Source: Candidatus Staskawiczbacteria bacterium
GTDB lineage: Bacteria > Patescibacteriota > Minisyncoccia > Minisyncoccales > Staskawiczbacteraceae
Assembly (NCBI GenBank): GCA_041659225.1
Contig: JBAZYR010000002.1
Coordinates: 8,439-72,438, forward strand
Reading direction: 5' to 3'
DNA length: 64,000 nt
The position numbers and the translations under genes are program-made. Shown here piece after piece: positions 1-64,000 of this stretch (the first letter of the stretch is position 1; every line of letters begins with the position of its first letter). The notes below the pieces were generated by a model. It ran no database searches. It was not told the origin of the DNA and saw only the letters and a program-made list of their open reading frames with translations.

Positions 1-1
1 A

Positions 2-745
2 GAAAATATTGAGATGAACACGAAAGTTCAGATTGTTAAGGTTAGCAACGATTCTCCTGCGCAGATAGCGGGAATTAAAAAAGGGGATGTCATCAAAGAA
101 TTATCTTCTGCTTCAGGAAATAAGTCGGTTGTTTTAATTAAGGATTTCCAGGAATTTATTGAAGCCAATAAAGGACAGGAAGTTATAGTCAGCTTTTTGA
201 GAAATGGCCAGCTTTTACAATCATCGCTGGTACCGCGGATTTCTCCGCCCGCGAATGAAGGATCTACCGGAGTCCAGCTGACCAGAACCGCCACCATAAT
301 TGAGAAATATCCCTGGTACCAAACTCCTTTCAGAGGGCTAGTCTTCTGCGGAGAATTAACATGGAAGTCCGTAGTAAGCTTGGCAGATCTTTTATTAGGC
401 TTAGTCACAGGCAAAGGTCTTCCAGCTGCAGCTGAACCGGCAGGTCCCGTAGGGATTACTGTATATATTGCCAAGGCAGCGGAATTAGGAATAGGTTTCT
501 TCCTGTACTTTGTCGGAGCGATATCTGTTTTGCTGGCGATATTCAATCTTTTGCCGATTCCAGCTTTAGACGGAGGAAAGTTATTGTTTATGGCAATTGA
601 GAAGATAAGGTCCAAACCAGTGTCTGCTAAAGTGGAAGGTGTAATTACCACCAGTTTTTTCGTTGTCCTGATTGCCTTATCCCTTTTTATTACAATTAAG
701 TTTGATATACCCAAACTTTCAGGATTCATAATGGGTAGCTTTTAA
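2..745 (+). CDS. rseP: RIP/site-2 metalloprotease RseP family, C-terminal part (5' end lies outside the window)
   Basis: The frame is open from base 2. A PDZ-like segment (VSNDSPAQIAGIKKGDVI) is followed by hydrophobic segments with LLPIPALDGGKLLF, typical of M50 peptidases. The HExxH region would lie upstream. Confidence 0.75.
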   Translation, partial: ENIEMNTKVQIVKVSNDSPAQIAGIKKGDVIKELSSASGNKSVVLIKDFQEFIEANKGQEVIVSFLRNGQLLQSSLVPRISPPANEGSTGVQLTRTATIIEKYPWYQTPFRGLVFCGELTWKSVVSLADLLLGLVTGKGLPAAAEPAGPVGITVYIAKAAELGIGFFLYFVGAISVLLAIFNLLPIPALDGGKLLFMAIEKIRSKPVSAKVEGVITTSFFVVLIALSLFITIKFDIPKLSGFIMGSF

Positions 746-747
746 AT

Positions 748-1824
748 ATGAAAAAGAGAAATATATTCAAAAGACTTTTATCTTTCCTTTCCGTAGATAT
801 GGCAATTGATTTAGGAACGGCCAATTCCTTGGTGTATATAAAAGACAGGGGGATTGTGATTAACGAGCCTTCGGTAGTGGCTGCCAACAATAAAACAGGC
901 CAGATTTTGGCTATCGGCGAGGACGCAAAAAAAATGGTAGGCCGAACTCCTGCATACATTACAGCCACCCGGCCTTTGGTTAACGGTGTTATCTCGGACT
1001 TCGAAGTTACAGAGCAAATGTTAAAGTACTTTATTGAAAAGTCTGCAAATTTGAGCAAAAAGAGATTCGGTTTGGCTTATCTCCCCCGCGTAATCATTGG
1101 CATTCCCTGCGGAGTGACAGAAGTGGAAAGGAAAGCAGTAAGAGATGCTGCCAAATCAGCCGGAGCAAGAACTGTTTTCTTGATTGAAGAGCCTTTGGCT
1201 TCAGCTATCGGGGCGCATCTTCCGATACAGGATGCCGGCGGAAATTTTATTGTAGATATCGGAGGCGGGACAACAGAGGTGGCTGTAATTTCTTTGGGAG
1301 GAATTGTTACTTTCCGTAGTTTGAGGATTGCCGGGGATAAATTAAACGACGACATTATGCAATTTGCCCAAAAAGAGTATAAACTGATGATAGGGGAACG
1401 AACTGCAGAAAATATTAAGATTTCCATTGGCTCTGCGATGCCCGCCAAGGAAAGAAAGGAGTTTTCAATGAGAGGAAGGAATATTGTTACGGGTTTGCCA
1501 GAAGAGGTCGTCATATTCAGCGACGACATACAGAGAGCTTTGGATAAATCAGTAAAACAGATAGTGGCTGCAGTTAAGACAACCATTGAAGAAACTCCGC
1601 CGGAGCTGCTGGCAGATATTATGGTAAATGGAATACACTTGTCCGGAGGAGGCTCGTTGCTCCGAGGATTGGCTGTATTAATAAACCGAGAAACAAAGAT
1701 TCCATGCAAAATAGTGGAAGACCCCCTAACCTCCGTGGTAAGGGGAGCCGGCATGGCTTTGGAGAATATAGAAACTCTTGCTGATATCCTGGCAAGAGAG
1801 GAAGAAGAAGGAGCTTTAGAATAA
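748..1824 (+). CDS. mreB: Rod-shape determining actin-like protein MreB
   Basis: 358 aa. Actin-fold ATPase motifs MAIDLGTANSLVY, DIGGGTTEVAVISLGG and IHLSGGGSLLRGL. Confidence 0.95.
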   Translation: MKKRNIFKRLLSFLSVDMAIDLGTANSLVYIKDRGIVINEPSVVAANNKTGQILAIGEDAKKMVGRTPAYITATRPLVNGVISDFEVTEQMLKYFIEKSANLSKKRFGLAYLPRVIIGIPCGVTEVERKAVRDAAKSAGARTVFLIEEPLASAIGAHLPIQDAGGNFIVDIGGGTTEVAVISLGGIVTFRSLRIAGDKLNDDIMQFAQKEYKLMIGERTAENIKISIGSAMPAKERKEFSMRGRNIVTGLPEEVVIFSDDIQRALDKSVKQIVAAVKTTIEETPPELLADIMVNGIHLSGGGSLLRGLAVLINRETKIPCKIVEDPLTSVVRGAGMALENIETLADILAREEEEGALE

Positions 1825-1825
1825 T

Positions 1826-2107
1826 ATGATATCTAAAGAAGAAGTAGAAAAGATAGCAAAACTAGCTCGTTTGGAATTAACTCCCGAGGAGGTGGTTAAA
1901 ATGCAAAAAGACCTGTCCGAAGTCCTAGACTATTTCAATGCTTTACAGAAAGTAGATTCCAAATCCTACATTTCTTCAAATATTCCCCGGGGAAACAATT
2001 TGAGAAAAGACGAAGGAAGGCATAGGGACGAAGAGCTGGTTGAAAAGCTGCTTGAACAGGCGCCTGACAAGAAAGATGAATATATTAAAGTAAAATCCAT
2101 ATTCTAA
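1826..2107 (+). CDS. gatC: Asp/Glu-tRNA(Asn/Gln) amidotransferase subunit C
   Basis: 93 aa. N-terminus ISKEEVEKIAKLARLELTPEE is typical of GatC, and the gene sits directly upstream of gatA. Confidence 0.9.
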   Translation: MISKEEVEKIAKLARLELTPEEVVKMQKDLSEVLDYFNALQKVDSKSYISSNIPRGNNLRKDEGRHRDEELVEKLLEQAPDKKDEYIKVKSIF

Positions 2108-2111
2108 TTCT

Positions 2112-3533
2112 ATGGAACTTCCGGGTTTAACGATCAGTAAAATCCACGACAGCTTAGTTAAGAAAGAGTATTCAGCTCTTGAGCTGACCAAGAAGTATTT
2201 AGAGCAAATTGCAGAGAGAGATGTTGCTATCTCTGCTTTTTTGTCTGCAAGTCCGGAATCAGCTATCTCACAGGCCAAGGAAACTGACAAACTAATCTTC
2301 GCGGGGAAGAAGATTCCAATGTTAGCCGGAGTTCCCTGCGCCATAAAAGACAACATTTTAGTGAAAGGTTTGAAGTGTACCGCAGGTTCTAAGATATTAG
2401 AGAGCTACGAGGCTCCATATGACGCAACTGTTGTTAAAAAGCTTAAAAAAGAGGGTGCAGTATTACTTGGAAAGACCAATTTAGACGAATTTGGAATGGG
2501 CGCCTCCACCGAGAATTCAGGCTTTAAAATGACCCGGAATCCAGAGGACCTAGATAGAGTGCCAGGGGGTAGTTCTGGGGGCTCTGCGGCCGCTATAAAG
2601 GCCTCAGAATGCTGTTTTGCCTTAGGTTCTGATACTGGAGGGTCTATCCGCCAGCCAGCCTCATTCTGCGGGGTTGTAGGCTTAAAACCCACCTATGGGG
2701 CAGTGTCCCGTTACGGCTTGATATCCTTTGCTTCCTCGTTGGATCAAGTAGGTGTTTTGGCCAGTACGGTAGCGGATGCTAAGATGATTTTTGACGTAAT
2801 TTCCGGCAAGGATTCTATGGATTCAACTAGCATCGAGCTGCCTAAGTTGTCTAACCCGAACTTCTCTATTAAAAACCTGCGTATTGGCGTTCCCAAGGAA
2901 TACTTTGTCAAAGGTCTTGATAAGGAAGTAGAGAAAACAGTAAGGTCAGCGATTAAAAAGATGGAAGCTGAAGGGGCGAAGATAGAAGAAATTAGCCTTC
3001 CCAACACAGAATACGCTTTAGCCACTTATTATATAATTGCGCCCTCCGAAGCCAGCGCCAATCTAGCAAGGTATGACGGAATAAAGTACGGGTTGTCTGA
3101 GAAAGAAGATAAACTGCTGGACGTGTATTTAAAATCCCGAGGCAAGGGATTTGGCGCTGAAGTTAAAAGAAGGATTATGATAGGAACTTATTGTTTGTCT
3201 TCCGGTTATTACGACGCCTATTACAAAAAAGCTCAGCAGATTAGGAATCTTTTACGAGAAGACTTTAAAAAAGCTTTTGGCAAAGTGGATATGATATTTA
3301 CTCCTGTAGCGCCGACAACTGCCTTTAAGATAGGAGAGAAGACTGCGGATCCTCTTTCTATGTATTTAAGCGATATTTATACAGTATCAGTAAGCTTGGC
3401 CGGATTGCCGGCAATCTCTGTACCGTGCGGCAGGGCGAATAATCTGCCAGTTGGCTTGCAGATTATCGGCAAGCATTTTGAAGAGCACAAGATTCTACAG
3501 ACAGCTTCTTTTATTGAGAAGTTGGTTATATAA
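2112..3533 (+). CDS. gatA: Asp/Glu-tRNA(Asn/Gln) amidotransferase subunit A
   Basis: 473 aa. Amidase signature GGSSGGSAAA...GSDTGGSIRQPA. Confidence 0.95.
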   Translation: MELPGLTISKIHDSLVKKEYSALELTKKYLEQIAERDVAISAFLSASPESAISQAKETDKLIFAGKKIPMLAGVPCAIKDNILVKGLKCTAGSKILESYEAPYDATVVKKLKKEGAVLLGKTNLDEFGMGASTENSGFKMTRNPEDLDRVPGGSSGGSAAAIKASECCFALGSDTGGSIRQPASFCGVVGLKPTYGAVSRYGLISFASSLDQVGVLASTVADAKMIFDVISGKDSMDSTSIELPKLSNPNFSIKNLRIGVPKEYFVKGLDKEVEKTVRSAIKKMEAEGAKIEEISLPNTEYALATYYIIAPSEASANLARYDGIKYGLSEKEDKLLDVYLKSRGKGFGAEVKRRIMIGTYCLSSGYYDAYYKKAQQIRNLLREDFKKAFGKVDMIFTPVAPTTAFKIGEKTADPLSMYLSDIYTVSVSLAGLPAISVPCGRANNLPVGLQIIGKHFEEHKILQTASFIEKLVI

Positions 3534-10173: not shown

Positions 10174-10359
10174 TTACGTGGAGGAAGTGTCCGGTTTCAA
10201 GGCCTCGAGGGCACCGAGTCCGCGCGAGACCTCCTCAACCGTTGACACGATCTTGTCCGGGTCGCTGCCGTTCAAGATGAGTCGAATCGCCTCCACCCTG
10301 TCTTTGTCATCAACGCCCCAGGCACCGATGACTTTACGAATCGCCGACTCTGTCGTCAT
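10174..10359 (-). CDS. Hypothetical 61-aa protein on a short G+C-rich insert
   Basis: AAGGAG lies 8 nt upstream of the ATG at 10359. A reverse-strand TTGACA-16-TATATT promoter sits at about 10405-10435. Local G+C is clearly above the flanks. Confidence 0.6.
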   Translation of the reverse strand: MTTESAIRKVIGAWGVDDKDRVEAIRLILNGSDPDKIVSTVEEVSRGLGALEALKPDTSST

Positions 10360-10452
10360 GGCCGAATCTCCTTTTGTTGTTGCGGGCGAAGAAACGTTCT
10401 TCGTCCAGTAGTATTAATATAGCATATGTTTAATTATTGTCAAAGTTAGTAT

Positions 10453-50140: not shown

Positions 50141-50146
50141 ATTGAT

Positions 50147-51059: not shown

Positions 51060-51087
51060 TTGACAAAAGTGTAAAAGTATATATAAT
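51060..51087 (+). promoter_or_regulatory. Sigma-70-type promoter
   Basis: TTGACA, 16-nt spacer, TATAAT. Confidence 0.6.
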
Positions 51088-51217
51088 AATAAGGACAACA
51101 AGTCCTTTTACAAGACAATAGTTTGTTGCTTGATCAGATCTCGACGTTTACTTTCACCGACACATTGTGCCGGGTAAGCGACGGGATATGTGAATCTATC
51201 GTGAAAGGGATTTCGTT

Positions 51218-52306
51218 ATGACTCAGCCACTGTGGATTGACTCGGTGCCCGCATGGGCATTGGGTCCCCGCTCAAGAAACGCGAAGTTCGGAGGAAACAT
51301 CATTCTCGCCGGCATTCCTTCGGTATCGGATCGGCTTTTGGCTGTTCGGCATTTGAGCGACCGGCTCGGCCTGCCCGGGGATCGGGCGTTGCGGAGTTCT
51401 GGTCACATTCTGCTTGAGGTCGAAACCAGTATTCGACGGCTCCGGCAGTACAACGACCCGGGCGCCATCAAGTTCAAGGATCTGAAGGCCGGTATCCGGA
51501 GCGGTAAGTATCCGCGCTGGGTTGCCATGACCGCGCCCCAGTTCGGCTTCAAGGGAGCTGAGCGCGGCGGAATGATTTCCAAGAGCGCTGCGGATCGCTT
51601 GATGGCCCGCGACCTCCATATCGAGGCCATCACCCGTTCTCAGGATCTGGAAAGAGACGGCCTCGGCGCCGGAGTCAACATCTGGTGGCCGGCTTGGACC
51701 AGCCGCAAGGTGGATGACCCCAGTGATCCTCCGATGGATTTCCAGCGGGCATGGGATATGTTGCTGGAATTCTGGGTGTATGTGCTGAAGGCCACCGGCG
51801 GCGTGATGTGGTTGGAGTGGAAACCCGGAGATCCGGGTTTCGACTACCTCATGACGCCGTGGCTGGCCAACAAATTCTGCAAAGCCGTCAATGACGCGCT
51901 CGGCAGGATGGCCATGTATATCAACAACGAGTTCGCTCACATCCTGCTCGCGGGCATCAGCGTCACCGAGGGCGTGCAGATGACCGTGGACGCCGGCCTC
52001 TTCTTCAAGTTCCTGCATGCGAATGCTGGCATGAAGCTGCCGGTCAGCATCCAGAGTCTTCTCGACGCCGGCGTGAAACCCGAGAACATCCCGATCCTTC
52101 TGGACGCAGACTGGCCACTCGGCGTGGGCTCGCAGGCAGCGTGGAACGACCAGCGGGATGCCATCGGCGTGATGGACAGGACCGGCCAGCCAACGATTTT
52201 CTGCGAACACGACGTCAACCCCTCCGGTCTCGAACCGCTCGCAGTGTTCGAGTTGAGCATCCGCAACCGGCAGAAGATGCTCCAAGAGGCGCGTGCCGCG
52301 GCGTAG
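51218..52306 (+). CDS. Xylose-isomerase-like TIM-barrel family protein (function unknown)
   Basis: 362 aa. LEWKPGDP, NNEFAHILLAG and FLHANAG resemble the xylose-isomerase-type motifs (IEPKPxEP, E-x-x-H, H-x-D/N). Promoter and terminator flank the plus strand. Confidence 0.55.
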   Translation: MTQPLWIDSVPAWALGPRSRNAKFGGNIILAGIPSVSDRLLAVRHLSDRLGLPGDRALRSSGHILLEVETSIRRLRQYNDPGAIKFKDLKAGIRSGKYPRWVAMTAPQFGFKGAERGGMISKSAADRLMARDLHIEAITRSQDLERDGLGAGVNIWWPAWTSRKVDDPSDPPMDFQRAWDMLLEFWVYVLKATGGVMWLEWKPGDPGFDYLMTPWLANKFCKAVNDALGRMAMYINNEFAHILLAGISVTEGVQMTVDAGLFFKFLHANAGMKLPVSIQSLLDAGVKPENIPILLDADWPLGVGSQAAWNDQRDAIGVMDRTGQPTIFCEHDVNPSGLEPLAVFELSIRNRQKMLQEARAAA

Positions 52307-52358
52307 TTCCGGACCGACTTCGGAACAAGCCAATAGGTTCTCATTCAGACAGAACATT

Positions 52359-52393
52359 GCCCCGTGCTAACTACAGACGGGGCTCTTTTTTTA
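52359..52393 (+). terminator. Rho-independent terminator; near-duplicate of the purL terminator
   Basis: GCCCCG-TGCTAACTACAGA-CGGGGC followed by TCTTTTTTT. Confidence 0.75.
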
Positions 52394-52444: not shown

Positions 52445-53602
52445 ATGATGAAAAAAAATATATCTCTTGCAAAAAAATCATTGGACTACCATAGAAAACT
52501 AAACGGCAAGATTGGTGTTTTTGCCAAAGCGCCGTTAAAATCTATTGAGGATTTAAAACTTTGCTATACTCCCGGAGTTGGTGCAGTCAGCACATATTTA
52601 GCCGGACATAAAAACCAGGTGAAGCAATATACAATTAAAAAAAATGCAGTTGCTGTCGTATCCGATGGCTCTGCTGTATTAGGATTAGGCAATATCGGCG
52701 CTGAAGGGGCTCTGCCGGTTATGGAGGGCAAGGCAATGATTTTTAAGGAGTTTGCCAATATTGATGCTTTCCCTATAGTCTTAGATACTCAAGACGTCGA
52801 GGAAATTATCACAACAATAAAATGTATTGCTCCGGTTTTCGGAGCAATAAACTTGGAGGATATTTCAGCTCCTCGATGTTTTGAAATTGAGCGGCGGCTG
52901 CAGAAGATGCTTAATATTTTTGTACTACACGACGACCAGCACGCAACTGCCGTGGTTGTGTTAGCCGGATTATTAAATGCTTTCGTAGTGGCAAAAAAAG
53001 ATCTTAAAAAAAGCTCTATTGTCGTGATAGGCGCGGGATCAGCCGGGACGGCCGTAACCAAACTTCTATATGCATATGGCGTAAGGAATATTGTTGTAGT
53101 TGATAAAGATGGGATTTTATCAAAGTGCCGCGGGAAATTATTGCCGCACCAAAAGGAGTTAGCTTTGATTAGCAATAAAAAATGCAAGGAAGGATCATTG
53201 AGGGACGCATTGGCAGGGGTTGACGCAGTTGTCGGACTTTCAGCGCCGAATATTATAAAGCCGGAGTTTATAAAAACAATGAATGCAAAGCCGATTGTTT
53301 TTGCCTTAGCCAATCCTATACCGGAAATAATGCCCGATATTGCTAGAAAAGCAGGAGCTTTCATTGTTGCAACTGGTAGATCAGATTTTGAAAACCAGGT
53401 TAATAACGCACTAGTTTTTCCCGGAATGTTCCGAGGCGCTTTGGATAATAATGTTAGAAAGATGACAGACAAAATACAGATTAATGTTGCTAAGAATCTC
53501 GCAGGAATTATCAAAAGGCCTCAGCGTAACAAAATTATACCTTCTATTTTCGACTCGCGAGTTGTGCAGACAATCGCTTTAAGTCTTAAAAAAACAAAGT
53601 AA
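52445..53602 (+). CDS. NAD(P)-dependent malic enzyme (short form)
   Basis: 385 aa. LCYTPGVG, VVSDGSAVLGLGNIGAEGALPVMEGKAMIFKEFANIDAFPI and VVIGAGSAG. Confidence 0.9.
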   Translation: MMKKNISLAKKSLDYHRKLNGKIGVFAKAPLKSIEDLKLCYTPGVGAVSTYLAGHKNQVKQYTIKKNAVAVVSDGSAVLGLGNIGAEGALPVMEGKAMIFKEFANIDAFPIVLDTQDVEEIITTIKCIAPVFGAINLEDISAPRCFEIERRLQKMLNIFVLHDDQHATAVVVLAGLLNAFVVAKKDLKKSSIVVIGAGSAGTAVTKLLYAYGVRNIVVVDKDGILSKCRGKLLPHQKELALISNKKCKEGSLRDALAGVDAVVGLSAPNIIKPEFIKTMNAKPIVFALANPIPEIMPDIARKAGAFIVATGRSDFENQVNNALVFPGMFRGALDNNVRKMTDKIQINVAKNLAGIIKRPQRNKIIPSIFDSRVVQTIALSLKKTK

Positions 53603-53626
53603 GGTACTTCCTCATTCTGTGGTAAA

Positions 53627-54730
53627 ATGAGGCCGATGACCACACGAATCATCGCACATCTGGATATGGATGCTTTCTTCGCTTCGCTCGAAGAAGTTGC
53701 TACCCCGGGTTTTAAAGATAAACCGATTGCTGTTGGCGCCGACCCCGAGGAAGGGAGGGGCAGGGGAGTAGTTTCTACGGCGAACTATAAAGCAAGAGCA
53801 TACGGCATACATTCTGCCCTCCCGATATCAACTGCCTGGCGGATATCACAGACAGAGAAAGCAAAAGGCAACCCTGAAGTTATTTTTGTAACCACGAATT
53901 TTGAGATGTATGAAAAGGCTTCGGAAAATGTTTTTAATATCATTAAAAAATATTCCGGAGAGGTCGAGCCGGCGAGCATCGACGAGTTCTATTTCGATCT
54001 TAGTTTCGCTAAGACTTTTTCAAAAGCTGAAAAAACCTGTAAAAAGATTAAAGCCGAGATAAGAAAGAAGGAAAAGGTCACTTGTTCAATAGGAATTGGA
54101 CCGAACAAGCTTGTTGCGAAAATTGCGGCTGGTATTAATAAGCCAGATGGAATCCTGGCAATTTTACCTAAAAAAGTGGAAAGCTTTTTAGATCCGCTAC
54201 CTATCCGAAAGATTCCCGGCATTGGGCCGAAAACCGCCGATATTTTCTATAACGGTAATGTGCAGACCATAAAAGACCTCAAGAAGTTCTCGAAAGAAGA
54301 ATTAATAGAAACCTTAGGCAAATGCGGAGAAGATATATACTATAAATCCCGCGGAGTTGATGATTCATTAATTGTTCAGGATAGAGAGGTAAAATCCATC
54401 GGCGAGCAAATAACTTTTGAGCAGGATACACTGCAAGCCCTTTTCTTGATTGGAGAATTTGAAAAAATCAGGCGAAACGTTTTCAAACGATTTCGAGAAA
54501 GCGGTTTTGATTGTTTTAAAACCATAACAATTGTCGTCCGTTTTGCAGATTTCGAAACGAAAACTAGCTCGAAAAGCTTTAAAAAGGAGATAAAGGTGGA
54601 GGATAATAAAATTTTTGAGATTGAGACATTAAAATTGATTCTGCCGTTTCTTGATCAGAGAAGTAACCCGCGGGGGAAACTAATACGTCTGATTGGGGTG
54701 AGAATAGAAAACCTCGAGAAGGTCGAATAA
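53627..54730 (+). CDS. dinB: DNA polymerase IV (Y-family)
   Basis: 367 aa. IAHLDMDAFFASLEE, SIDEFYFDL and PIRKIPGIGPKT. Confidence 0.9.
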   Translation: MRPMTTRIIAHLDMDAFFASLEEVATPGFKDKPIAVGADPEEGRGRGVVSTANYKARAYGIHSALPISTAWRISQTEKAKGNPEVIFVTTNFEMYEKASENVFNIIKKYSGEVEPASIDEFYFDLSFAKTFSKAEKTCKKIKAEIRKKEKVTCSIGIGPNKLVAKIAAGINKPDGILAILPKKVESFLDPLPIRKIPGIGPKTADIFYNGNVQTIKDLKKFSKEELIETLGKCGEDIYYKSRGVDDSLIVQDREVKSIGEQITFEQDTLQALFLIGEFEKIRRNVFKRFRESGFDCFKTITIVVRFADFETKTSSKSFKKEIKVEDNKIFEIETLKLILPFLDQRSNPRGKLIRLIGVRIENLEKVE

Positions 54731-54790
54731 ACTATTGTGCCGACTTCTGGCCCAGCGTATAATAAGGAAGTAACAATTAACTATAATATT

Positions 54791-55810
54791 ATGCAATCAA
54801 AATACTTTTTTACGTTTATTATCCTTAGCGCCATTAGCTTGGTTTCAGTCTATCCAGCCGCTGTCTGCGCACAAACGGATGCAAGCACTATCAGCCAGCA
54901 AATGTTATCTGAAAGTATAGAAATATCAGGCGAACCGCAGGTGTTAGAAAGCGTCGTTATTGACGAGGTTAAGAACATTCCTTCCGGTTTTGGTTATTGG
55001 TGGCGTAATCTTAAGGAGGATATTTCTATCGGCTTGACCTTCAATCCCGTTAAAAAAGCCACGATTCAGCTAAAGTTTGCCGAGGAGAGAATGAAGTTAG
55101 CCGAATATATGACTCAAAACAGTACAGATCCGAAAGTCCAGGAAAAAGCTCAGCAAATGATAGAAAAAGCTAATGAGTATATGCAAAAGATTGAAGAAAA
55201 ACGGGATGAGTTCGCTCAAAGCGCAGATCCCAGCGTTAAGCCTTTATTAAAGGATGTTTTAAAACATAATTTAAATACAATTCGTGTTTTCGAGAAAATT
55301 GAAGATATGCTACCTCCGGAAAAATTGGAGCAGTTCCAGCAAACCCGTGCTCGAATTGAAGGATTTCAAACTAATTTTCTTGAAAAGTTAAAAGAAAATC
55401 CCAATGTTTCTAAGGAAGTGAAGGATAGAGCGATAGAGGCCGTAAGTTCTCTAAAAGCAACTTTAGAAGCTAGAAAGGAGATAAGGCTGGAGCAAAAAGA
55501 CATTTTAAATGAGATTAAAGCAGGGAATCAGGAAGCGAAACAAGAGTTGGAAGTTTTAAGAGGGGAAAGGAAGGAAAAAATCGAGCAATTAAGGCAAGAG
55601 TATAAAGAGGAAAAGGGGACTATTATTGAAAAAATACAGGCAGGCGATAAGGACGCGGTTAACGAATTAAAAGCTCTTAATGATGAAAAAAAGATCGAGC
55701 TGAAGGGCATTCAGCTGGAAATAAAGGACAAAACGAAAGAAGTGAAGGAAACGCTTAAACAAAATAGAGAAGAACTCAAGGGTCAGCTGCCGAATAAAAA
55801 CAATCAGTAA
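54791..55810 (+). CDS. Secreted coiled-coil protein
   Basis: Signal peptide MQSKYFFTFIILSAISLVSVYPAAVCAQ. Long K/E-rich helical repeats. The start is moved from the GTG at 54737 to the ATG at 54791. Confidence 0.6.
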   Translation: MQSKYFFTFIILSAISLVSVYPAAVCAQTDASTISQQMLSESIEISGEPQVLESVVIDEVKNIPSGFGYWWRNLKEDISIGLTFNPVKKATIQLKFAEERMKLAEYMTQNSTDPKVQEKAQQMIEKANEYMQKIEEKRDEFAQSADPSVKPLLKDVLKHNLNTIRVFEKIEDMLPPEKLEQFQQTRARIEGFQTNFLEKLKENPNVSKEVKDRAIEAVSSLKATLEARKEIRLEQKDILNEIKAGNQEAKQELEVLRGERKEKIEQLRQEYKEEKGTIIEKIQAGDKDAVNELKALNDEKKIELKGIQLEIKDKTKEVKETLKQNREELKGQLPNKNNQ

Positions 55811-55917
55811 ATCTTAAAAAGTCCGGAGAAACGTCGAATACGCCCTCGGTTTTTGGGTTGGATAAAAATGGAAAATGAGTTGTCCGCCTATTTTTTTTAT
55901 GATAGTATATTAAGAAT

Positions 55918-55991
55918 GGGGGCGTAGTTCAATGGCAGAATAGAGGTCTCCAAAACCTTTGATCAGGGTTCGAATCCTTGCGCCCCCGCCA
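55918..55991 (+). tRNA. tRNA-Trp (anticodon CCA), CCA encoded
   Basis: Acceptor GGGGGCG/CGCCCCC, anticodon stem-loop GAGGT-CTCCAAA-ACCTT, T-arm CAGGGTTCGAATCCTTG, and 3' GCCA. Confidence 0.85.
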
Positions 55992-56014
55992 AGATATAAT
56001 TAAAGAGATTAAAT

Positions 56015-57538
56015 ATGAAAATTACTAAATTTTTAAAGAAAAAGAGGGTTGTTTGGACGATAATAATCCTATTGGCGGTAATCGCTATTGGATATTTTGC
56101 GTTCGGGGGGAATAATAAAACGAGCGGGATACAGACTGCGACAGTCGCAAAACAGAATCTGCAGGAGACGGTTTTGTCTACGGGCCAGGTTGTCAGCAGA
56201 GTGGATTTAAGCCTTAGTTTCCAGGGAAGCGGAGTTGCCAGGCAGGTATTTGTGAAGGAAGGAGATGAAGTTGCGAAGGGCAAGATTTTGGCCTTACTGG
56301 ACCAAAGTAGCGCACGCGCAAGCTTGATGACTGCTCAAGGCGCCTTAGCCCAAGCTCAAGCTAATTACGACAAAGTGATTAATGGGGCAACCCCTGAAGA
56401 CATACAGATATATGAGGATGCTGTGCTATCGGCGCAAGAGGATTTGCGAGACACATACAACGGATCTTCGAATACCTTAAACGATGCATATATTTATGTG
56501 TATAATGCATATCGTTTTGTGGTTCTTCTCCAAAATAACTATTTCGGCGCATCTGATCAGGAGGGTATTCGGGTGCAGGATAATAAGAATAGTATAAATG
56601 AAAAAATGGCCGATATAAGAACTGCTATCGACGGCGCTACCACGAATGAAAAAATAGATTCCGCAGTTTCTGTAATAATCGGCGATTTAAACAGCGTACA
56701 GGATTCTTTAAGAATAATTCGCGAGCAATGCGACGAAGGAGCTTACGCGAACAAGGTTTCTACAGCCGATAAGACTTCCTTAGACACGCATAAGGCTAAT
56801 ATAGTCGCTGCCATAACTAGTATCAATTCCCTGCAGCACAGCATCGCCTCCGACAAAATTGCTCTCCAAAAAGCAGAAAACACTTTAACGCAAAAAACCG
56901 TAAAGCCTCGTCAGGAAGATGTTGACGCCGCTTATGCTCAAGTAATCTCCGCCCAAGGTCAGGTTGCCTCCGCGCAAGCAACCATCAATAACTTAACCTT
57001 ATGGGCGCCCGCCGGTGGAACGATCACCCACGTAGGAATAAAGGTGGGGGAGCAGGCTGCCGCTATGACCGAGGTTATGGTTTTGCAGAATGTCAGCGAT
57101 GTATATGCAGAAGCGAATGTAAGCGAAGCAAATATCGCTTCCTTGGAGGTTGGTCAGACAATCGATTATACTTTTGACGCACTGGGACCAGACGAAACTT
57201 TCCAAGGAAAAATATTGACCATCAATCCTGCCTCGACCGTAATCTCCGGTGTGGTAAACTATAAAGTTACGGGTAGTCTTGAAAATATCCCGGATATTAA
57301 GCCCGGTATGACCGTGAACATGACTGTTCTGGTTGCCGAAAAAGACAATGTATTGGCCGTGCCTTCATCGGCCATAATTAACAAAGACGGGAAAAAATAT
57401 ATACGGGTAATTGATGACTTGAAAACAAAGAAATACCACGAGGTTGAAGTCCAGATTGGCATGCAGGCCGATGGGGGATTGGTTGAAATCATCTCCGGCC
57501 TCACAGAAGGACAGATGATTATTACTTACATGAAATAA
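56015..57538 (+). CDS. HlyD/MacA-family periplasmic adaptor-like protein
   Basis: 507 aa. N-terminal TM, a lipoyl-like hairpin (GDEVAKGKILALLD), a long coiled coil and a beta-barrel C-terminus. Confidence 0.8.
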   Translation: MKITKFLKKKRVVWTIIILLAVIAIGYFAFGGNNKTSGIQTATVAKQNLQETVLSTGQVVSRVDLSLSFQGSGVARQVFVKEGDEVAKGKILALLDQSSARASLMTAQGALAQAQANYDKVINGATPEDIQIYEDAVLSAQEDLRDTYNGSSNTLNDAYIYVYNAYRFVVLLQNNYFGASDQEGIRVQDNKNSINEKMADIRTAIDGATTNEKIDSAVSVIIGDLNSVQDSLRIIREQCDEGAYANKVSTADKTSLDTHKANIVAAITSINSLQHSIASDKIALQKAENTLTQKTVKPRQEDVDAAYAQVISAQGQVASAQATINNLTLWAPAGGTITHVGIKVGEQAAAMTEVMVLQNVSDVYAEANVSEANIASLEVGQTIDYTFDALGPDETFQGKILTINPASTVISGVVNYKVTGSLENIPDIKPGMTVNMTVLVAEKDNVLAVPSSAIINKDGKKYIRVIDDLKTKKYHEVEVQIGMQADGGLVEIISGLTEGQMIITYMK

Positions 57539-57540
57539 CA

Positions 57541-58257
57541 ATGGAGCTAGTCAGAGTTGAAAAGCTTAAAAAGAACTATGACAACGAGGGCGTTGTAACC
57601 CATGTTTTGCATGATATAAATTTCAGTATTAACAAAGGCGAGTTTGTAGCTATCATGGGTCCGTCAGGGTCCGGCAAGTCAACCTTGATGCATATATTAA
57701 GTTTTCTCGACCGACCTACGTCCGGGACATACAAATTCGAGGGCGAGGATATTGAGAAATTTACTGACGATTACCTTGCCAAGTTGAGAAATGAAAGAGT
57801 CGGGTTTGTATTCCAATCTTTTAATTTGCTCAGCCGGACTACTGTTTTAGATAATGTAAAGTTGCCTTTAGTCTACAGCCATAAAAAAGACCATGACAAG
57901 TTAGCCAAAGAAGCCTTAGAATCCGTAGGGCTTTCTCATAGATTGCACTATTTTACCAATCAAATTTCCGGAGGCGAAAAACAGAGGGTGGCAATCGCCC
58001 GGGCTTTGGTTTGCAATCCGGCCGTAATTTTTGCCGACGAACCTACGGGTAACTTAGATTCCAAGTCCGGCAACGCTGTAATGTATATTCTTCAGAAGTT
58101 GAATAATGACGGCCACACAATCATTCTTGTCACACACGAAACCGATACGGCCAACCATGCCGACAGAATCATCCGGCTTAAAGACGGTGGAATTATCTCT
58201 GACGAAAAAGTAAAGCAAAAAACAGCTGCAACCGCAGAAAGAGATCTTATAAAATAA
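57541..58257 (+). CDS. MacB/LolD-type ABC transporter ATP-binding protein
   Basis: 238 aa. [23 protein letters not shown] and [11 protein letters not shown]. Confidence 0.9.
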
Positions 58258-58260
58258 TCT

Positions 58261-59532
58261 ATGGATTTTTTAGGCACCATAAAACTTGTAGCGCGAACAT
58301 TGCTTGCTAGAAAAGGCAGGTCTTTTTTAACTATTTTAGGAATTGTTATAGGAGTAGCGGGTGTAATTATCATCATAGCCTTGGGGGCAGGCGCCCAAAG
58401 TTTAATTTTAGGGCAGGTTACAAAGCTGGGCTCCGATCTTTTAAGTATTCAGCCCGGAAAAAGCAATGAAAAAGGCCCTCCAGCTCAGATATTCGGCATT
58501 GTCATAACCACATTAGTAAACGGAGATGCCGATGCATTGCGGAGCAAGTCGCAGGTCCCGCACGCTCTAGCTGTTAACGCTATGGTTCAGGGTTCTGCAT
58601 CAGTTACCTGGCAGGATAAGACCATAGATACGAATTTTACCGGCACCGAATATACATATACCGACGTTGTAACTTTTACAATGCAGAAAGGACAGTTTTT
58701 CGACCAGCAACAAGAGAAGGGAGACGCTAATGTTGTGGTGTTGGGCTTTTCTGTAGCCAATCAACTGTTTGAAGGAACAAATATAGACCCGATCGGACAG
58801 GTTATTAAAATTCGTAGCGCTTCGCAGGAACAGGCAGGCGGAATTCCTTTGCGCGTGATTGGGGTGGTTGACGAAAGGGGAAGCGCTTTTTTCCAGGATC
58901 AGGACGATCAGGTTTTCGTCCCTTTGGGCATCGGCCAGCAGCAGCTGCTGGGAATACACTATTTGCAGTCAGTGAATATTAAAGTTGATTCAGCTGACAA
59001 CGTTGACTCGACCATTGCTGACGTGACTAGGGTGTTAAAGCAGACCCACCGCATACGACGCGATATAGATGTTGATTTCACGGTGCGTAATGTTGCCAGT
59101 GCTATAGAAATTCTGAGCACCATAACGGACGCGCTTCGTCTTTTCTTAACGGCAATGGCAGCCATTGCTTTAATAGTCGGTGGAATTGGAATTTTAAACA
59201 TTATGATGGCAACGGTTGCAGAGCGAACTCGCGAGATCGGGCTTCGTAAGGCGGTCGGGGCAACTAATTCTGCCATCAGGAACCAATTTTTATTGGAAGC
59301 AGGCTCCTTAACTTTCCTGGGAGGTATTATCGGAATAATTATTGGAACATTAGTCTCTTATCTGATATCTATACTGATGCACTATCTTGGATACGAATGG
59401 GCTTTTATCGTTTCAATTTCCTCAATTATTCTCGCCGTCGGGGTTTCAATTCTGACAGGAGTAATTTTCGGATTGTATCCTGCTTTTAAAGCAGCAAAAT
59501 TAAATCCAATAGACGCGCTAAGGTACGAATAA
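58261..59532 (+). CDS. MacB/FtsX-type ABC permease (paralog 1)
   Basis: 423 aa. MacB_PCD-like extracytoplasmic domain between TM1 and TM2. C-terminal FtsX domain ending LNPIDALRYE. Confidence 0.85.
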   Translation: MDFLGTIKLVARTLLARKGRSFLTILGIVIGVAGVIIIIALGAGAQSLILGQVTKLGSDLLSIQPGKSNEKGPPAQIFGIVITTLVNGDADALRSKSQVPHALAVNAMVQGSASVTWQDKTIDTNFTGTEYTYTDVVTFTMQKGQFFDQQQEKGDANVVVLGFSVANQLFEGTNIDPIGQVIKIRSASQEQAGGIPLRVIGVVDERGSAFFQDQDDQVFVPLGIGQQQLLGIHYLQSVNIKVDSADNVDSTIADVTRVLKQTHRIRRDIDVDFTVRNVASAIEILSTITDALRLFLTAMAAIALIVGGIGILNIMMATVAERTREIGLRKAVGATNSAIRNQFLLEAGSLTFLGGIIGIIIGTLVSYLISILMHYLGYEWAFIVSISSIILAVGVSILTGVIFGLYPAFKAAKLNPIDALRYE

Positions 59533-59534
59533 AT

Positions 59535-60791
59535 ATGTTCAAGATTTTACAACAAGCTATAAAAGCTTTATCTGCGAATCTGGCTAGAACGGTGTTAACA
59601 ACGTTAGGTATTGTCATCGGCATTGCCACTGTTATTTTAGTTTTGTCCGCCGGCGCCGGCTTTCGAAGCCTCATTGACGACCAAATATCTTCCTGGGGTT
59701 CAAATATGTTGTTTATTGAGACAAGAGTTCCGCCCACGACAAAGAATCGGGCGAGTGGCGCAGCCAGTGCGGATTTAAGCAGGGCTACATCAGCGGTGGC
59801 GATTACCTCATTTAAACAGCGCGATCTGGAGGAAGTTAAAAAATTAGGAAATGTTATAAACGCCTATGGCATGACCACTGGCCTGGCTGTGGTCAGTTAC
59901 CGCGGCAATGAAAAAGATGTTATTTACTACGGCGCCTCGGCCGAGCGTTTTTTAATGGATAAGCACGAGCTGACAAGCGGGAGATTCTATACTCAAAGCG
60001 AGGACGACGGCGCCTCGCAAGTAGTAATTTTAGGAAGCAATCTTGCCGCTGATTTATTCAATCAAGACGATCCCATAGGCAAGCTGGTCAGGATAGGGAC
60101 GCTTAACTTCCAGGTGATAGGAGTTTACGAGCCCCAAGGAGCGGTTGGAGGCCCGAGTGCAGATGACGGCCTATACATGCCCTTGGTTACCGCTCAGAAA
60201 AAGATGCTAGGCATTGATTATTTGGTTGTCGGGGTCGTACAGGTGGAGAACGTTGACTTGTCTGATGCAACTGCCGAATCTATAAAACAAGTGATGAGGC
60301 GCAACCACAACATCACGGATCCGGAGAAAGATGATTTTACTGTAACCACCCAGGCCCAGGCCATGGATACTTTCAACGTTATATTTAACGGCATCACTAT
60401 CCTGCTAATTTGCATCGCCGCCATTTCCTTGATTGTCGGAGGAGTGGGGATTATGAACATCATGTATGTAGTGGTGACGGAGAGAACAAGCGAAATTGGT
60501 TTGAAAAAAGCCTTAGGCGCAAGAAGTTCTGATATCTTAAACGAGTTTCTTATAGAATCAGTTTTAGTAACCGTAATAGGCGGAATTATCGGAATAGTAG
60601 CCGGAGCTTTTCTCGGTTGGATAGTTTACGTCGTTGCCGTCTCCAATGGTTTGGCATGGACTTTTTCTGTTCCTCTGTACGCGATAGCTATCGGAGTGGG
60701 AGTTTCCGGAACCATTGGAATTGGCTTCGGCGTTTTACCGGCCCGTAGCGCAGCTAAACTTGATCCGATAGAGGCTTTGAGGTACGAATAG
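59535..60791 (+). CDS. MacB/FtsX-type ABC permease (paralog 2)
   Basis: 418 aa. Same architecture as paralog 1, ending LDPIEALRYE. Confidence 0.85.
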   Translation: MFKILQQAIKALSANLARTVLTTLGIVIGIATVILVLSAGAGFRSLIDDQISSWGSNMLFIETRVPPTTKNRASGAASADLSRATSAVAITSFKQRDLEEVKKLGNVINAYGMTTGLAVVSYRGNEKDVIYYGASAERFLMDKHELTSGRFYTQSEDDGASQVVILGSNLAADLFNQDDPIGKLVRIGTLNFQVIGVYEPQGAVGGPSADDGLYMPLVTAQKKMLGIDYLVVGVVQVENVDLSDATAESIKQVMRRNHNITDPEKDDFTVTTQAQAMDTFNVIFNGITILLICIAAISLIVGGVGIMNIMYVVVTERTSEIGLKKALGARSSDILNEFLIESVLVTVIGGIIGIVAGAFLGWIVYVVAVSNGLAWTFSVPLYAIAIGVGVSGTIGIGFGVLPARSAAKLDPIEALRYE

Positions 60792-60866
60792 TTTGCATGA
60801 TATATCGTACGGCGGTATAGTAATGTAACTTACGCACATTTACATCGAACCTGAAAGGAGGTTCTC

Positions 60867-61568
60867 GTGCGAGAAATTGCCGAACAGTTTGTTGATTTAG
60901 TTTTACGATACGAGTGCTGGTCTCAAGTGCAAGGATTACCTCATGAAGAGGTTCAAATACTTTTTCATACGGTTTCTGCCGCAGGATTTAATCCGCAAGC
61001 TATTGCGCATGGGAAAGTGAAAGATGAATCACAGTTTCCAACTCCAGATTGCGCAATCAACGTAATATCACCGTACAAGGTGGTTGATAAAACGGGGGAA
61101 GATCATTGTTTCGCTACCGGTTGGCTCGACTGCGCTTTACGCCTCGTACTTATGGGAAAAAACCTACACGATGAACCTCGCGATAAAATAATCGATACTA
61201 TTCTTTCAGAAATACTACGAAGCGTCCCTTTGCAACCAATTCTTCTTGATTCTAAAGGTGATATTCTTTGGGAACATCCGCGCCAACCTTTGGCGCCAAG
61301 TCGCGAAGTTCATGGCCTTGTCTATTTCGTCGCCCACACCCGCGATGCAGACGGCTTGCACCTTAACGCATGCGTTGGGGTACATCTCAATTGCACCGGC
61401 TATATGGATCGTTTTCGGGCCACAGATATATTCGACTGCCTAACTTGCCGAAAGTGCAATCTTCGAGTATTCTTCCCGAAAGAAATACAAACCTATGGCG
61501 ACCTACGCCAGTACTTTATTGAAAAGCTGCAAGGCGAGGCCTCGGCCCAACCAAATAATCTAGTATAG
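60867..61568 (+). CDS. Hypothetical protein (higher G+C, SD-bearing singleton)
   Basis: 233 aa. GTG start preceded by GAAAGGAGG with a 6-nt spacer. Cys/His-rich C-terminal part (HLNACVGVHLNC...CLTCRKC). Confidence 0.5.
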   Translation: MREIAEQFVDLVLRYECWSQVQGLPHEEVQILFHTVSAAGFNPQAIAHGKVKDESQFPTPDCAINVISPYKVVDKTGEDHCFATGWLDCALRLVLMGKNLHDEPRDKIIDTILSEILRSVPLQPILLDSKGDILWEHPRQPLAPSREVHGLVYFVAHTRDADGLHLNACVGVHLNCTGYMDRFRATDIFDCLTCRKCNLRVFFPKEIQTYGDLRQYFIEKLQGEASAQPNNLV

Positions 61569-61980: not shown

Positions 61981-62603
61981 ATTTAATACATTCTTTAGTG
62001 CACGAAGGCTGGATAAAAACAGACTCAATCAAGAAAGCTTTTAAGAAAATTAGAAGAGAGGATTTTTTGCCTGACGAGACGAAAAATCTTGCCGAACTGA
62101 ACGAAGCTTTGCCTATCGGGTTTGGTCAGACAATTTCTCAGCCGTTAGTAGTTGCATTTATGCTAGAACAGTTGCAGCCTAATTCGGGAGATAAGGTTTT
62201 AGATGTTGGCTCCGGTTCCGGCTGGACTACAGCGCTGTTAGCTCAGATAGTAGGAGAGAAGGGAAAAGTCGTGGCTCTGGAGATTGTGCCGGAATTAAAG
62301 GAATTTGGCGAAAACAACGTTGCCAAATACGGGTTTGTCGAGAAGGGGATTGTTAAGTTTTCTAATACCGATGGTTCAAAGGGTTATGGCGATATAGGCG
62401 AGTTTGCCGGAGGGTTTGATAAGATTTTAGTTTCTGCCTCTGCAGAAAGCATCCCTAGTATTTGGAAAGAGCAGCTCCGAGTTGGCGGAAAGATAGTTGC
62501 TCCAGTCGGTTCGTCCATAAAAACAATTATTAAAAAATCTGAAACCGAATTTGAGGAAATTGATCATCCTGGATTTGTTTTTGTTCCTTTAATTCAAAAG
62601 TAG
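61977..62603 (+). CDS. pcm: Protein-L-isoaspartate O-methyltransferase
   Basis: 208 aa. GQTISQPLVVAFMLE, VLDVGSGSGWTTALLA and DKILVSAS. Confidence 0.85.
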   Translation: MNLIHSLVHEGWIKTDSIKKAFKKIRREDFLPDETKNLAELNEALPIGFGQTISQPLVVAFMLEQLQPNSGDKVLDVGSGSGWTTALLAQIVGEKGKVVALEIVPELKEFGENNVAKYGFVEKGIVKFSNTDGSKGYGDIGEFAGGFDKILVSASAESIPSIWKEQLRVGGKIVAPVGSSIKTIIKKSETEFEEIDHPGFVFVPLIQK

Positions 62604-62616
62604 GGGATAAGTAATT

Positions 62617-63609
62617 ATGAAATTTATAACTTCTTTTGTTTTATTCGTTGTCCTAACCGGCAGTTTTTTTATTTCCGCAAATCTTTTCATTCCTGTATCA
62701 TCCGGATCCCTAGAAAATATTGATTTTACTGTTCAAAGAGGGGAGGGGGCAAAAGATATTGTATCAAATCTTAAAAAGGAAGGGCTAATACGCAGCAGCG
62801 TTGTTTCTCGCGCTTTTATTCTATCATCCGGTTTATCCCATAAGCTTCAGGCCGGACAGTATTTATTTTCTCCGTCAATGAGCACGTGGTCTATCTTTCG
62901 TAAAATATCATCTGGTGACATCGCAACTAAGAAAATTACTATTATCGAAGGGTGGAAGTTAGAAGAAATAGGCCAATATCTGGAAGACCAGGGAATTTGC
63001 ACTAAACAGGAATTTTTAGAACTGTCCAAAAAAGACTTTAGCGAGGAATTCACTTTTTTAAACGACAAGCCCAAAAATCTTAGTCTGGAGGGATATATTT
63101 TCCCTGATACTTACGAGTTTCTTCCCGGGGCAAGCGTCGAGAATATCATTCGAATGTTTTTGAATAATTTTGATCAAAAGTTTACGTCCCAACTGCGCGA
63201 TGAAGTTAAAAGGCAGGACAAGTCGATTTTTGAAACTGTAACTATGGCTTCGATTATTGAGAGGGAAGTAAAGAAAATAGAGGATAAGAAGGTTGTCTCC
63301 GGTATTTTTTGGAAAAGACTAGAAATTGATATGTATCTTCAGTCATGCGCAACAGTTGTGTATATTACCGGCAACAATGGATATGGCGTTTCCTTGGACG
63401 ATCTGACGATTGACTCGCCATACAATACGTATAAATACATGGGCCTGCCCGTGGGTCCTATCTCGAATCCGGGGATAAGCAGTATTGAAGCTGCTATTTA
63501 TCCTACTAAAACAAACTATTTGTATTTTCTGTCGACGCCTTCCGGTAAGACTATTTTTAGCAAAACCTTTGAAGAACATTCGGCGGCCCAGGAATCTTAT
63601 TTGAGGTAG
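62617..63609 (+). CDS. mltG: Endolytic murein transglycosylase MltG (YceG-like)
   Basis: 330 aa. N-terminal TM. LEGYIFPDTYEF, ASIIEREV and SPYNTYKYMGLPVGPISNPG. Confidence 0.9.
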   Translation: MKFITSFVLFVVLTGSFFISANLFIPVSSGSLENIDFTVQRGEGAKDIVSNLKKEGLIRSSVVSRAFILSSGLSHKLQAGQYLFSPSMSTWSIFRKISSGDIATKKITIIEGWKLEEIGQYLEDQGICTKQEFLELSKKDFSEEFTFLNDKPKNLSLEGYIFPDTYEFLPGASVENIIRMFLNNFDQKFTSQLRDEVKRQDKSIFETVTMASIIEREVKKIEDKKVVSGIFWKRLEIDMYLQSCATVVYITGNNGYGVSLDDLTIDSPYNTYKYMGLPVGPISNPGISSIEAAIYPTKTNYLYFLSTPSGKTIFSKTFEEHSAAQESYLR

Positions 63610-63747
63610 CGGCTAGAATTGACTCTTCTATGGCCGGTGGTATATTAGAATAATAGTGGTATTGATATAATTAATTAACTCCACTGAATAATCACCTTCT
63701 CAATAATTTTAGTTATTGCGAAGAGATCATTCTGCGGATAAAAATAT

Positions 63748-64000
63748 ATGGATATCATGCGAACTAAATTTTTAGCAGCGATATTTTCTCTTTCGTTGCT
63801 GTCTTTATGCGTCCCGATCCTCGCAAGCGCCGCCGCGCTTAACGTATGTGCCAAAACAGATGTTAATAATGACAAGAAAGTTGACGCCCAAGATACCGCT
63901 TTTATTCGGAATAATATCGGTTGCACTACCCCCGGAAATGATTGCCATAAGGCAGACGTTAATCGTAACGGCAAAGTAGATAACTTTGACGTTCTCTTAG
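63748..64000 (+). CDS. Secreted dockerin-repeat protein, 5' part (runs off the window)
   Basis: ATG at 63748. Signal peptide MDIMRTKFLAAIFSLSLLSLCVPILASA. Two dockerin-type Ca-binding segments, DVNNDKKVDAQD and DVNRNGKVDNFDVLL. Absent from the ORF track because no stop lies inside the window. Confidence 0.65.
   Translation, partial: MDIMRTKFLAAIFSLSLLSLCVPILASAAALNVCAKTDVNNDKKVDAQDTAFIRNNIGCTTPGNDCHKADVNRNGKVDNFDVLL

Follow-up and report, generated by a model that had tools for sequence, protein, structure and literature searches.

Genes in a 64,000-nucleotide stretch (the window) of a Candidatus Staskawiczbacteria genome, which belongs to the Parcubacteria within the Candidate Phyla Radiation (CPR), begin in two distinct ways: backbone genes lack a Shine-Dalgarno (SD) sequence before the start codon, and a minority of genes, accessory in nature, carry one. 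Two heritable modes of translation initiation, each a property of the gene family across the lineage, probably coexist in this organism. The window was analyzed together with its flanks as an extended region (window coordinates -7888..73609; 81.5 kb) that contains 79 called genes, 60 of them in the window. Gene calls and Pfam matches came from an independent pipeline run on matching metagenome contigs, and L-numbers (L005, L022, L027, L055 and so on) are labels of related or matching metagenome contigs or loci. Starts were scored by the energy of the duplex that their positions -20..-3 form with the canonical 16S rRNA tail ACCUCCUUA; an SD was called at ≤ -7.9 kcal/mol and a strong SD at ≤ -10 kcal/mol, and 2043 non-start ATGs of the extended region served as the control set.

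By this measure, an SD was present in 14 of the 60 window genes and missing from the other 46. Across the extended region, 19 of 79 genes carried an SD, compared with 3.4% of the control ATGs (binomial p = 1.4e-11), and strong SDs were found in 8 of 79 genes versus 0.9% of the controls (p = 5e-7). Six of the 15 AAGGAGG heptamers on both strands of the extended region stand 5-8 nt before a called start. Because SD rates exceed those of the control ATGs and AAGGAGG is tied to starts, the two start classes exist well beyond chance, and the dichotomy of an SD-less backbone and SD-bearing accessory genes, first drawn in a preliminary description of this DNA, is real and statistically strong. All 27 upstream sequences quoted there read as described, and the independent pipeline uses the same start codons at 10525, 41036, 41965, 44638, 46308 and 50286. 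The classes also differed in start context: T occupied position -1 in 42 of the 60 SD-less starts of the extended region (70%) but in only 5 of the 19 SD starts (26%; p = 0.001), and A+T made up 79% of positions -12..-1 before SD-less starts versus 49% before SD starts. SD-less genes include rplJ and rplL (both just outside the window), rpmG, prfB, proS, trmD, gatCA and mreB. SD genes of the extended region were shorter (median 94 aa versus 298 aa) and were more often un-annotated (13/19 versus 17/60). The features concerned are listed below with the G+C content (GC) of genes where it matters.

748..3533, forward strand: mreB-gatC-gatA, SD-less and tightly coupled core genes with gaps of 1-4 nt and A/T-rich upstream sequence.
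10174..10375, reverse strand: 61-aa open reading frame (ORF) of GC 0.58, with SD AAAAGGAG at 10368-10375 (energy -8.7 kcal/mol); independently called, no Pfam match.
16848-18185, reverse strand: response regulator (RR) fused to an RlmN/Cfr-like radical-SAM domain, with SD AAAGGAGG at 18194-18201; GC 0.45.
18217-19455, reverse strand: PAS histidine kinase (HK) without SD; GC 0.41.
27776..29558, forward strand: five short ORFs (58-94 aa), each led by an SD, with starts at 27791, 28059, 28216, 28975 and 29274, with energies of -7.9 to -12.0 kcal/mol.
29618..30731, reverse strand: YfcE-like double metallophosphoesterase, with SD AAGGAAGGAGG at 30721-30731 (energy -11.7 kcal/mol); GC 0.45.
34656..35781, forward strand: prfB (RF2), with the SD-less start ATG 34656.
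39113..39778, forward strand: trmD, an SD-less core gene and the anchor for finding relatives.
40597..40864, forward strand: tRNA-Thr(GGT) and rpmG, the last core features ahead of the island.
40703-40864, forward strand: rpmG itself (L33, 53 aa, CxxC...CxxC), SD-less, between tRNA-Thr and the higher-GC block.
40920..52392, forward strand: higher-GC accessory block (the island) of seven genes, GC 0.47-0.61.
44625..46122, forward strand: PurB-like lyase, with SD AAAGGAGG at 44625-44632 and start 44638.
52448..60791, forward strand: malic enzyme, dinB, DUF5667, yknX, MacB ATPase and two permeases, all SD-less, and tRNA-Trp.
60854..61568, forward strand: hyp233, with GTG start 60867 and SD AAAGGAGGT at 60854-60862 (energy -12.3 kcal/mol), the strongest SD in the window.

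Among the core genes, gatC has an AAGGAG at 1808-1813, which lies 12 nt from the start and within the end of mreB and hence has no functional spacing. The five small ORFs at 27776..29558 have a GC of 0.39-0.49 and gave no Pfam or PHROG match.

The preliminary description had also claimed that every higher-G+C gene carries AAGGAG or GGAGG and that SD presence correlates perfectly with composition. Scoring SD energy against per-gene GC and GC at third codon positions (GC3) in the window confirmed a correlation, but a moderate one (Spearman rho = -0.36 with GC and -0.41 with GC3). The median GC in the window was 0.454 for SD genes and 0.414 for SD-less genes (Mann-Whitney p = 0.003), and the link remained when the island was left out. 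Perfection was lost on both sides. Nine of the 14 window SD genes fell inside the 5-95% GC range of the SD-less genes, with ordinary values seen at 27791 (0.39), 29274 (0.43), 18185(-) (0.45), 30715(-) (0.45) and 60867 (0.46). Conversely, 5 of the 12 genes with GC ≥ 0.47 in the extended region were below the SD threshold: 50286 has only a GGAG that touches the ATG (-2.9 kcal/mol), 51218 and 43023 reach a weak -5.1 and -7.1 kcal/mol, and 31179 (GC 0.47) and 65919 (GC 0.58, outside the window) have no SD. Length, missing annotation and synteny separate SD from SD-less genes better than GC does.

Synteny was compared with relatives, in which the gene order is KH-trmD-(hyp206)-(yknX-macB)-hyp109-PCMT-yceG-rplJ-rplL...clpB-mraZ. 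The SD genes lie outside this conserved trmD...rplJL synteny and mostly encode short proteins of unknown function. The gap from trmD to yknX measures 550 bp in L027 versus 16.2 kb here, where the interval holds tRNA-Tyr, hyp206, tRNA-Thr, rpmG and the 11.5-kb block, followed by malic enzyme, dinB, DUF5667 and tRNA-Trp. hyp233 is inserted alone between hyp109 and the gene for the second MacB permease, where L022 and L027 carry no gene. In a set of 1114 ORFs from relatives, 67-73% of the SD ORFs were without a homolog in other loci, compared with 31-33% of the remaining ORFs (p down to 6e-13), an SD ORF being 4-5 times more likely to have none. Genes that bear an SD are accessory.

We investigated whether homologs of the SD genes are SD-led as well. 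PurB-like homologs of 52-73% identity are common in CPR metagenome-assembled genomes (MAGs). Across 80 metagenome loci, 48 of the 73 PurB-like homologs with a usable start had an SD of ≤ -7.9 kcal/mol, and 57 of 61 distinct upstream regions reached ≤ -5 kcal/mol; other ORFs on these loci carried an SD in ~14% of cases. The PurL homolog in L116 (74% identity), a CPR contig of 33% GC on which PurL and PurB-like homologs occur together, has a GC of 0.46 and the SD AAGGAGGT. Homologs of hyp233 in L175 and L177 are both SD-led (AAGGAGG and AAGGAG) in differing gene neighborhoods, on contigs where the genes for L13, S9, MurA, MreB, L33, ClpB, TopA and SerS are SD-less and further small unknown ORFs have an SD. 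That a motif of 6-8 nt is kept at the right spacing through such divergence indicates selection, and thus a ribosome able to use the SD in most of these organisms.

The same homologs bear on where the SD genes came from. In PurB-like loci, the gene exceeded the host in GC in 96% of cases, by a steady +0.056 that partly tracked host GC (r = 0.67); the offset of TrmD from its host was -0.01 (r = 0.89). The PurB-like GC excess is a family trait, and therefore no sign of recent arrival in this genome. Donors were checked for PurB-like, hyp233, RR-radical-SAM and PurL. The named homologs of the first three were from CPR bacteria and gave no foreign donor; those of hyp233 with a named organism were CPR only (Wolfebacteria, Minisyncoccia). 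The earlier reading of the SD-bearing genes as foreign thus holds insofar as they are accessory, being non-syntenic insertions often without homologs in other loci, and does not appear to hold insofar as it makes them leftovers of a donor, given their CPR homologs and conserved SDs. 'Foreign' is better read as an accessory pool common to CPR bacteria. The HK/RR-radical-SAM gene pair is likewise conserved in CPR contigs (L171, L173, L174). The HK and the RR with its RlmN/Cfr-like radical-SAM RNA methyltransferase domain (CX3CX2C) make up a rare family, seen as 15 clusters in CPR, which suggests two-component control of rRNA or tRNA methylation.

Core genes of the relatives were SD-poor. In ~60 related Parcubacteria loci, an SD preceded 0-25% of long ORFs, compared with 4-10% for the internal control, and homology-anchored starts had an SD in 1/77 TrmD, 0/35 KH, 0/11 L10 and 0/7 PCMT methylase genes. 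T stood at -1 in 74% of the TrmD homologs. Over ~1400 ORFs, the start context consisted of 45-56% A at -6..-2 and 54-56% T at -1, with 8-16% G. In L055, L073, L085, L086 and L087, the next feature downstream of trmD, at ~1-3 kb, is the 16S rRNA gene. Its 3' end is canonical (GGATCACCTCCTTTCT; anti-SD GATCACCTCCTT) in four of these five loci (L055, L073, L086, L087). SD-poor core genes were found with either kind of 16S, in L055, L073 and L087 with the anti-SD and in L085 without it. Among the scanned ORFs, a few were SD-led on L055 and L087, and these stand beside SD-less core genes. The preliminary description had asked how one ribosome could translate both classes; as L055 and L087 combine a canonical anti-SD with an SD-less core and SD-led genes, the question poses no paradox. 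The case is similar to that of the SD-poor Bacteroidia, and a single ribosome serving two such classes is well precedented. The 81.5-kb extended region contains no rRNA gene, an Rfam search of the window at the gathering threshold returned only tRNAs, and no 16S end occurs on the PurB-like loci.

Promoters of the sigma-70 type were searched for upstream of 1115 ORFs as TTGACA-N16-18-TATAAT with ≤2 mismatches. A -10 box lay within 20 nt of the ATG in none of 39 SD ORFs but in 43 of 150 SD-less ORFs (p = 2e-5). Its distance peaked at 5-10 nt for SD-less ORFs and had a median of 53 nt for SD-led ORFs, and the SD genes are predicted from the consensus to lie behind leaders of at least 30 nt. In the window, many SD-less genes start ≤25 nt after the previous stop or have a TATAAT-like box 6-15 nt upstream. 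A purely leaderless explanation was rejected, as the positional profile of the -10 box alone gave just a weak peak at 6-8 nt.

These results suggest the following model. Core genes would use SD-independent initiation. The first genes of transcription units, in which the -10 box is often 5-15 nt from the ATG, would have leaderless or very short transcripts, and operon-internal core genes, 0-25 nt behind the preceding stop, would be translated by coupling or re-initiation; core starts would be alike in an upstream context that is rich in A and poor in G, with T at -1. A patchy accessory pool would come in self-contained units (purB-like, purL, hyp233, the small ORFs at 27.8-29.6 kb and the metallophosphoesterase), each with a putative sigma-70-like promoter, a leader of at least 30 nt and, 4-8 nt ahead of the start, an SD of the AAGGAGG type. 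With a leader of this length the 30S subunit would have to load internally, so that SD/anti-SD pairing would still be needed and be kept by selection. From SD conservation and from the relatives, we infer that the 16S rRNA of this organism probably keeps a usable anti-SD and that its SDs are functional. More tentatively, and with doubt outweighing belief, the Parcubacteria might keep a lineage-wide mobile pool of cassettes composed of a promoter, a conserved 5' leader motif and an SD (purB-like, purL, small unknowns), in which the SD would be a portable expression signal for any CPR host and the streamlined core would have given up SD pairing in favor of initiation that is leaderless, coupled or dependent on an A-rich context.

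Several observations weigh against two functional initiation modes. The 81.5 kb covered are part of a 785-kb genome, and the promoters and leader lengths are consensus matches only. SD conservation in the PurB-like family is incomplete (66%), and among RR-radical-SAM homologs the SD is strong in 1/3 and weak in 1/3. The anti-SD motif is reportedly lost in about half of the Parcubacteria (PMC9297842), and the 16S rRNA of L085 ends in GGATGGAAAATATTTTT, with no CCTCC or anti-SD; if this genome lacks the anti-SD, its SDs cannot act by pairing. Finally, frame 0 of prfB runs from ATG 34656 (MKVLQMIDKTITTEELAKRIHHLVDRL) to a programmed +1 frameshift, CTT TGA C, at 34734-34740, with the SPF motif present, and the frameshift site is preceded only by a weak SD-like GGTGG (-6.2 kcal/mol), which would fit a ribosome that makes little use of an anti-SD. 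The prfB of L024 has the same frameshift site, preceded by GATGGA. The prfB site neither proves nor excludes anti-SD use.

Alternatively, the SD genes could be recent imports from SD-using donors, with SDs that are non-functional, not yet decayed and ignored by the native ribosome. Their non-syntenic positions, their higher mean GC, the strongly deviant block at 40.9-52.4 kb (GC up to 0.61) and the loss of the anti-SD, both in the related L085 and as published for the Parcubacteria (PMC9297842), are consistent with such an origin. However, a neutral 6-8-nt motif would decay, whereas 48 of 73 PurB-like homologs at 52-73% identity keep a spaced SD in SD-poor hosts, and an SD likewise leads the hyp233 and PurL homologs of other CPR genomes. 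The named homologs of PurB-like, hyp233 and RR-radical-SAM are CPR proteins and not those of outsiders, the PurB-like GC offset stays the same from host to host and in part follows host GC, most SD genes of the window are of ordinary GC, and the most deviant genes (50286, 51218) are without an SD. We consider recent import rather improbable.

It also appears unlikely that the SD genes form a regulon of a switchable ribosome as in Bacteroidia, in which the anti-SD is present but sequestered (e.g., by bS21/bS18/bS6) and SD genes are translated conditionally or by a ribosome subpopulation. The canonical anti-SD in four of five related 16S genes, despite SD-less core genes there, the A-rich, Kozak-like upstream context shared with Bacteroidia (PMC13000457) and the precedent of Flavobacterium (PMC7797042, PMC9976891) argue for it. 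Sequestration here would be an analogy, though; CPR bacteria often lack bS21 (PMC9297842), the extended region holds no rpsU, and the SD genes are many and diverse (24% of genes) compared with the single rpsU case. In addition, the SD at the prfB frameshift site is weak here and retained in Bacteroidia (PMC10798248). An artefact of gene callers that favor ribosome-binding sites (RBSs), of wrong starts or of a chimeric assembly of two organisms is highly improbable. Many SD genes are indeed short un-annotated ORFs, Prodigal-type callers reward RBS motifs, and the window differs from a contig in the European Nucleotide Archive (ENA) inside one repeat-rich gene. Nevertheless, large annotated genes (purB-like, purL, pyrF, metallophosphoesterase, RR-radical-SAM) have the SD before a homology-supported first codon, AAGGAGG is positionally tied to starts, ORFs of 58-94 codons would be improbable by chance at 42% GC (by a rough estimate, not computed), and an independent assembly of a different sample has exactly the same island junctions.

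The proposed coexistence of two initiation modes, each bound to the gene family, resembles known systems in part. In Bacteroidia (Flavobacterium johnsoniae; PMC7797042, PMC9976891, PMC13000453, PMC13000457), as here, SDs are nearly absent genome-wide, starts show upstream adenines and few G, and a canonical anti-SD is kept (here in most related 16S genes) together with a minority of strong-SD genes. The A-rich upstream context is common to both, although its exact positions differ from those published for Flavobacterium. Bacteroidia are a different phylum, however, and here the SD class comprises about a quarter of the genes, accessory or unknown and not rpsU, T at -1 is the strongest positional signal, and the prfB site has no strong SD. 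The anti-SD loss that Tsurumaki et al. (2022, PMC9297842) described for a subgroup of the Parcubacteria concerns the same superphylum, and the relative L085 shows such a loss; that study looked at rRNA only, whereas here relatives with an anti-SD are equally SD-poor at their starts. The mixed-signal genomes of GeneMarkS-2 (PMC6028130), which combine leaderless promoters with RBSs or belong to non-SD RBS classes, likewise have two upstream signals, with a -10 box, here a putative one, near the ATG of some first genes. In their classical leaderless class, operon-internal genes carry SDs, whereas here internal core genes are SD-less and the SD follows family and accessory status. SD-poor genomes and anti-SD loss in some Parcubacteria are already known; what is added is that SD use in these reduced genomes is not random but goes with gene family, accessory status and length of the leader, a pattern kept across candidate phyla.

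SD presence could serve as a cheap sequence marker of the flexible CPR gene pool and, if the reading is true, would mark the exchangeable gene pool of the Parcubacteria. A prediction is that the SD-led class should collapse or disappear in sublineages whose 16S rRNA lost the anti-SD. Gene callers trained on one start model would mis-start one class. In the window, prfB was mis-started at TTG 34675 by both pipelines and by the ORF list, and rpmG is missed by ORF lists of at least 60 aa.

The higher-GC block (40.9-52.4 kb; 11.5 kb) has a GC of 0.47-0.61 versus 0.41 for the host. Its genes pyrF (41036), pyrE-like (41965), purB-like (44638) and purL (46308) have an SD, and the purC-purE-like gene (43023) and the unknown genes 50286 and 51218 have a weak one or none. 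The part at 41036-50078 is a partial nucleotide-synthesis set consisting of pyrF (subfamily 2), a pyrE-like phosphoribosyltransferase, purC fused to a purE-like domain, purB and purL, the last encoding a single-chain FGAM synthase of 1256 aa. To our knowledge, nucleotide-synthesis genes such as pyrF, purB and purL are usually considered missing in Parcubacteria. The block indicates that nucleotide-synthesis genes (pyrF, pyrE-like, purC/E, purB, purL) travel in the accessory pool of organisms that are commonly regarded as lacking these pathways. A GC-rich terminator hairpin (CCCCGTGCTAACT...CGGGG followed by a T-run) lies after purL at 50106-50138, and a similar one after the last island gene at 52360-52392; both stand out from their A/T-rich surroundings. 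The independent assembly L005 matches 40696-55947 at 100% identity, both block junctions included; the block is therefore not an assembly chimera.

Compositionally atypical islands acquired horizontally are reportedly covered by the amelioration concept of Lawrence and Ochman. Like such islands, the block is raised in GC by 0.1, adjoins a tRNA gene and has no counterpart at the syntenic site of relatives; unlike them, it has no integrase and no flanking direct repeats, and its PurB-like family is widespread in CPR with a constant GC offset. Domain searches found no integrase domain among the window proteins, despite the tRNA-Thr upstream of the block, and tRNA-targeted integration was rejected because there is neither a direct repeat of the tRNA-Thr end nor an integrase. 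A phage origin of the SD genes was likewise rejected: scans of viral contigs with the metallophosphoesterase, RR-radical-SAM and hyp233 gave no relatives, and PHROG searches were empty for ten SD or island proteins save for one marginal match.

The leader of purB-like genes was similar in many CPR loci (L091-L170), with a TTGACA-N17-TATAAT promoter followed by a start-proximal motif (AGCACCTT / YCTTTRACAA). In one subgroup this motif is succeeded by two hairpins, the first of which carries AAGGAGGG in its loop or stem and is separated from the second by a T-run; ACCTTCC and the SD come next. In the window, the leader (44490-44637) contains GCGCCAAAtcgatgTTTGGCGC and then TCCTTTGACAAAGGAGG. It is possibly an unnamed cis-regulatory leader. 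An Rfam E-value search of eight loci for a known riboswitch or leader before purB-like gave only tRNAs and sub-threshold noise. Sequestration of the SD by the recurrent CU-rich YCTTTRACAA was also rejected, the pairing probability of the SD exceeding that of shuffled sequences at most marginally, with 0.51 versus 0.47 in the window (p = 0.5) and 0.49 versus 0.43 in PurB-like leaders (p = 0.04). Because it lies 6-8 nt after the -10 box, YCTTTRACAA is more likely an element proximal to the transcription start.

The assignment of the window agreed across data sets. Its gatA product is also present on a 785,252-bp ENA metagenome contig and on contigs of two other samples. The PurB-like protein is identical to an NCBI entry named 'MAG: Candidatus Staskawiczbacteria bacterium', which places the window in the Parcubacteria, and the nearest TrmD relatives (identity up to 78%) come from MAGs of Parcubacteria/Paceibacteria (Nealson-, Wildermuth-, Gribaldo- and Portnoybacteria). 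Independent assemblies agree exactly with the window except within one repeat-rich surface-protein gene. This giant VWA/LTD/Fn3-like protein (24275-27399) is encoded by one gene of 1203 aa in the ENA contig and by two ORFs (616 aa and 411 aa) in the window, where ~487 bp of internal repeat are missing and a 1-bp indel lies near 24486, suggesting assembly collapse or strain variation.

Just past the window end, at extended-region coordinates 64781-65728, rplJ-rplL have no rplK-rplA upstream of them within the extended region, which is only part of the genome; an SD-led 94-aa ORF (GC 0.52) and a dockerin-like ORF come before them. The isolated rplJ-rplL may be related to the uL1-lacking Parcubacteria group. 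An extended motif, (T)TTACAA(A)GGAGG or TCCTTTGACAA, recurs before several unrelated SD genes of this genome, at 27776-27790, 28955-28974, 44615-44637 and 46275-46307 in the window and at 67030-67049 in the extended region. A motif of the same (T)TTACAA(A)GGAGG type stands before PurL of L116 (GTTCTTTAACAA).

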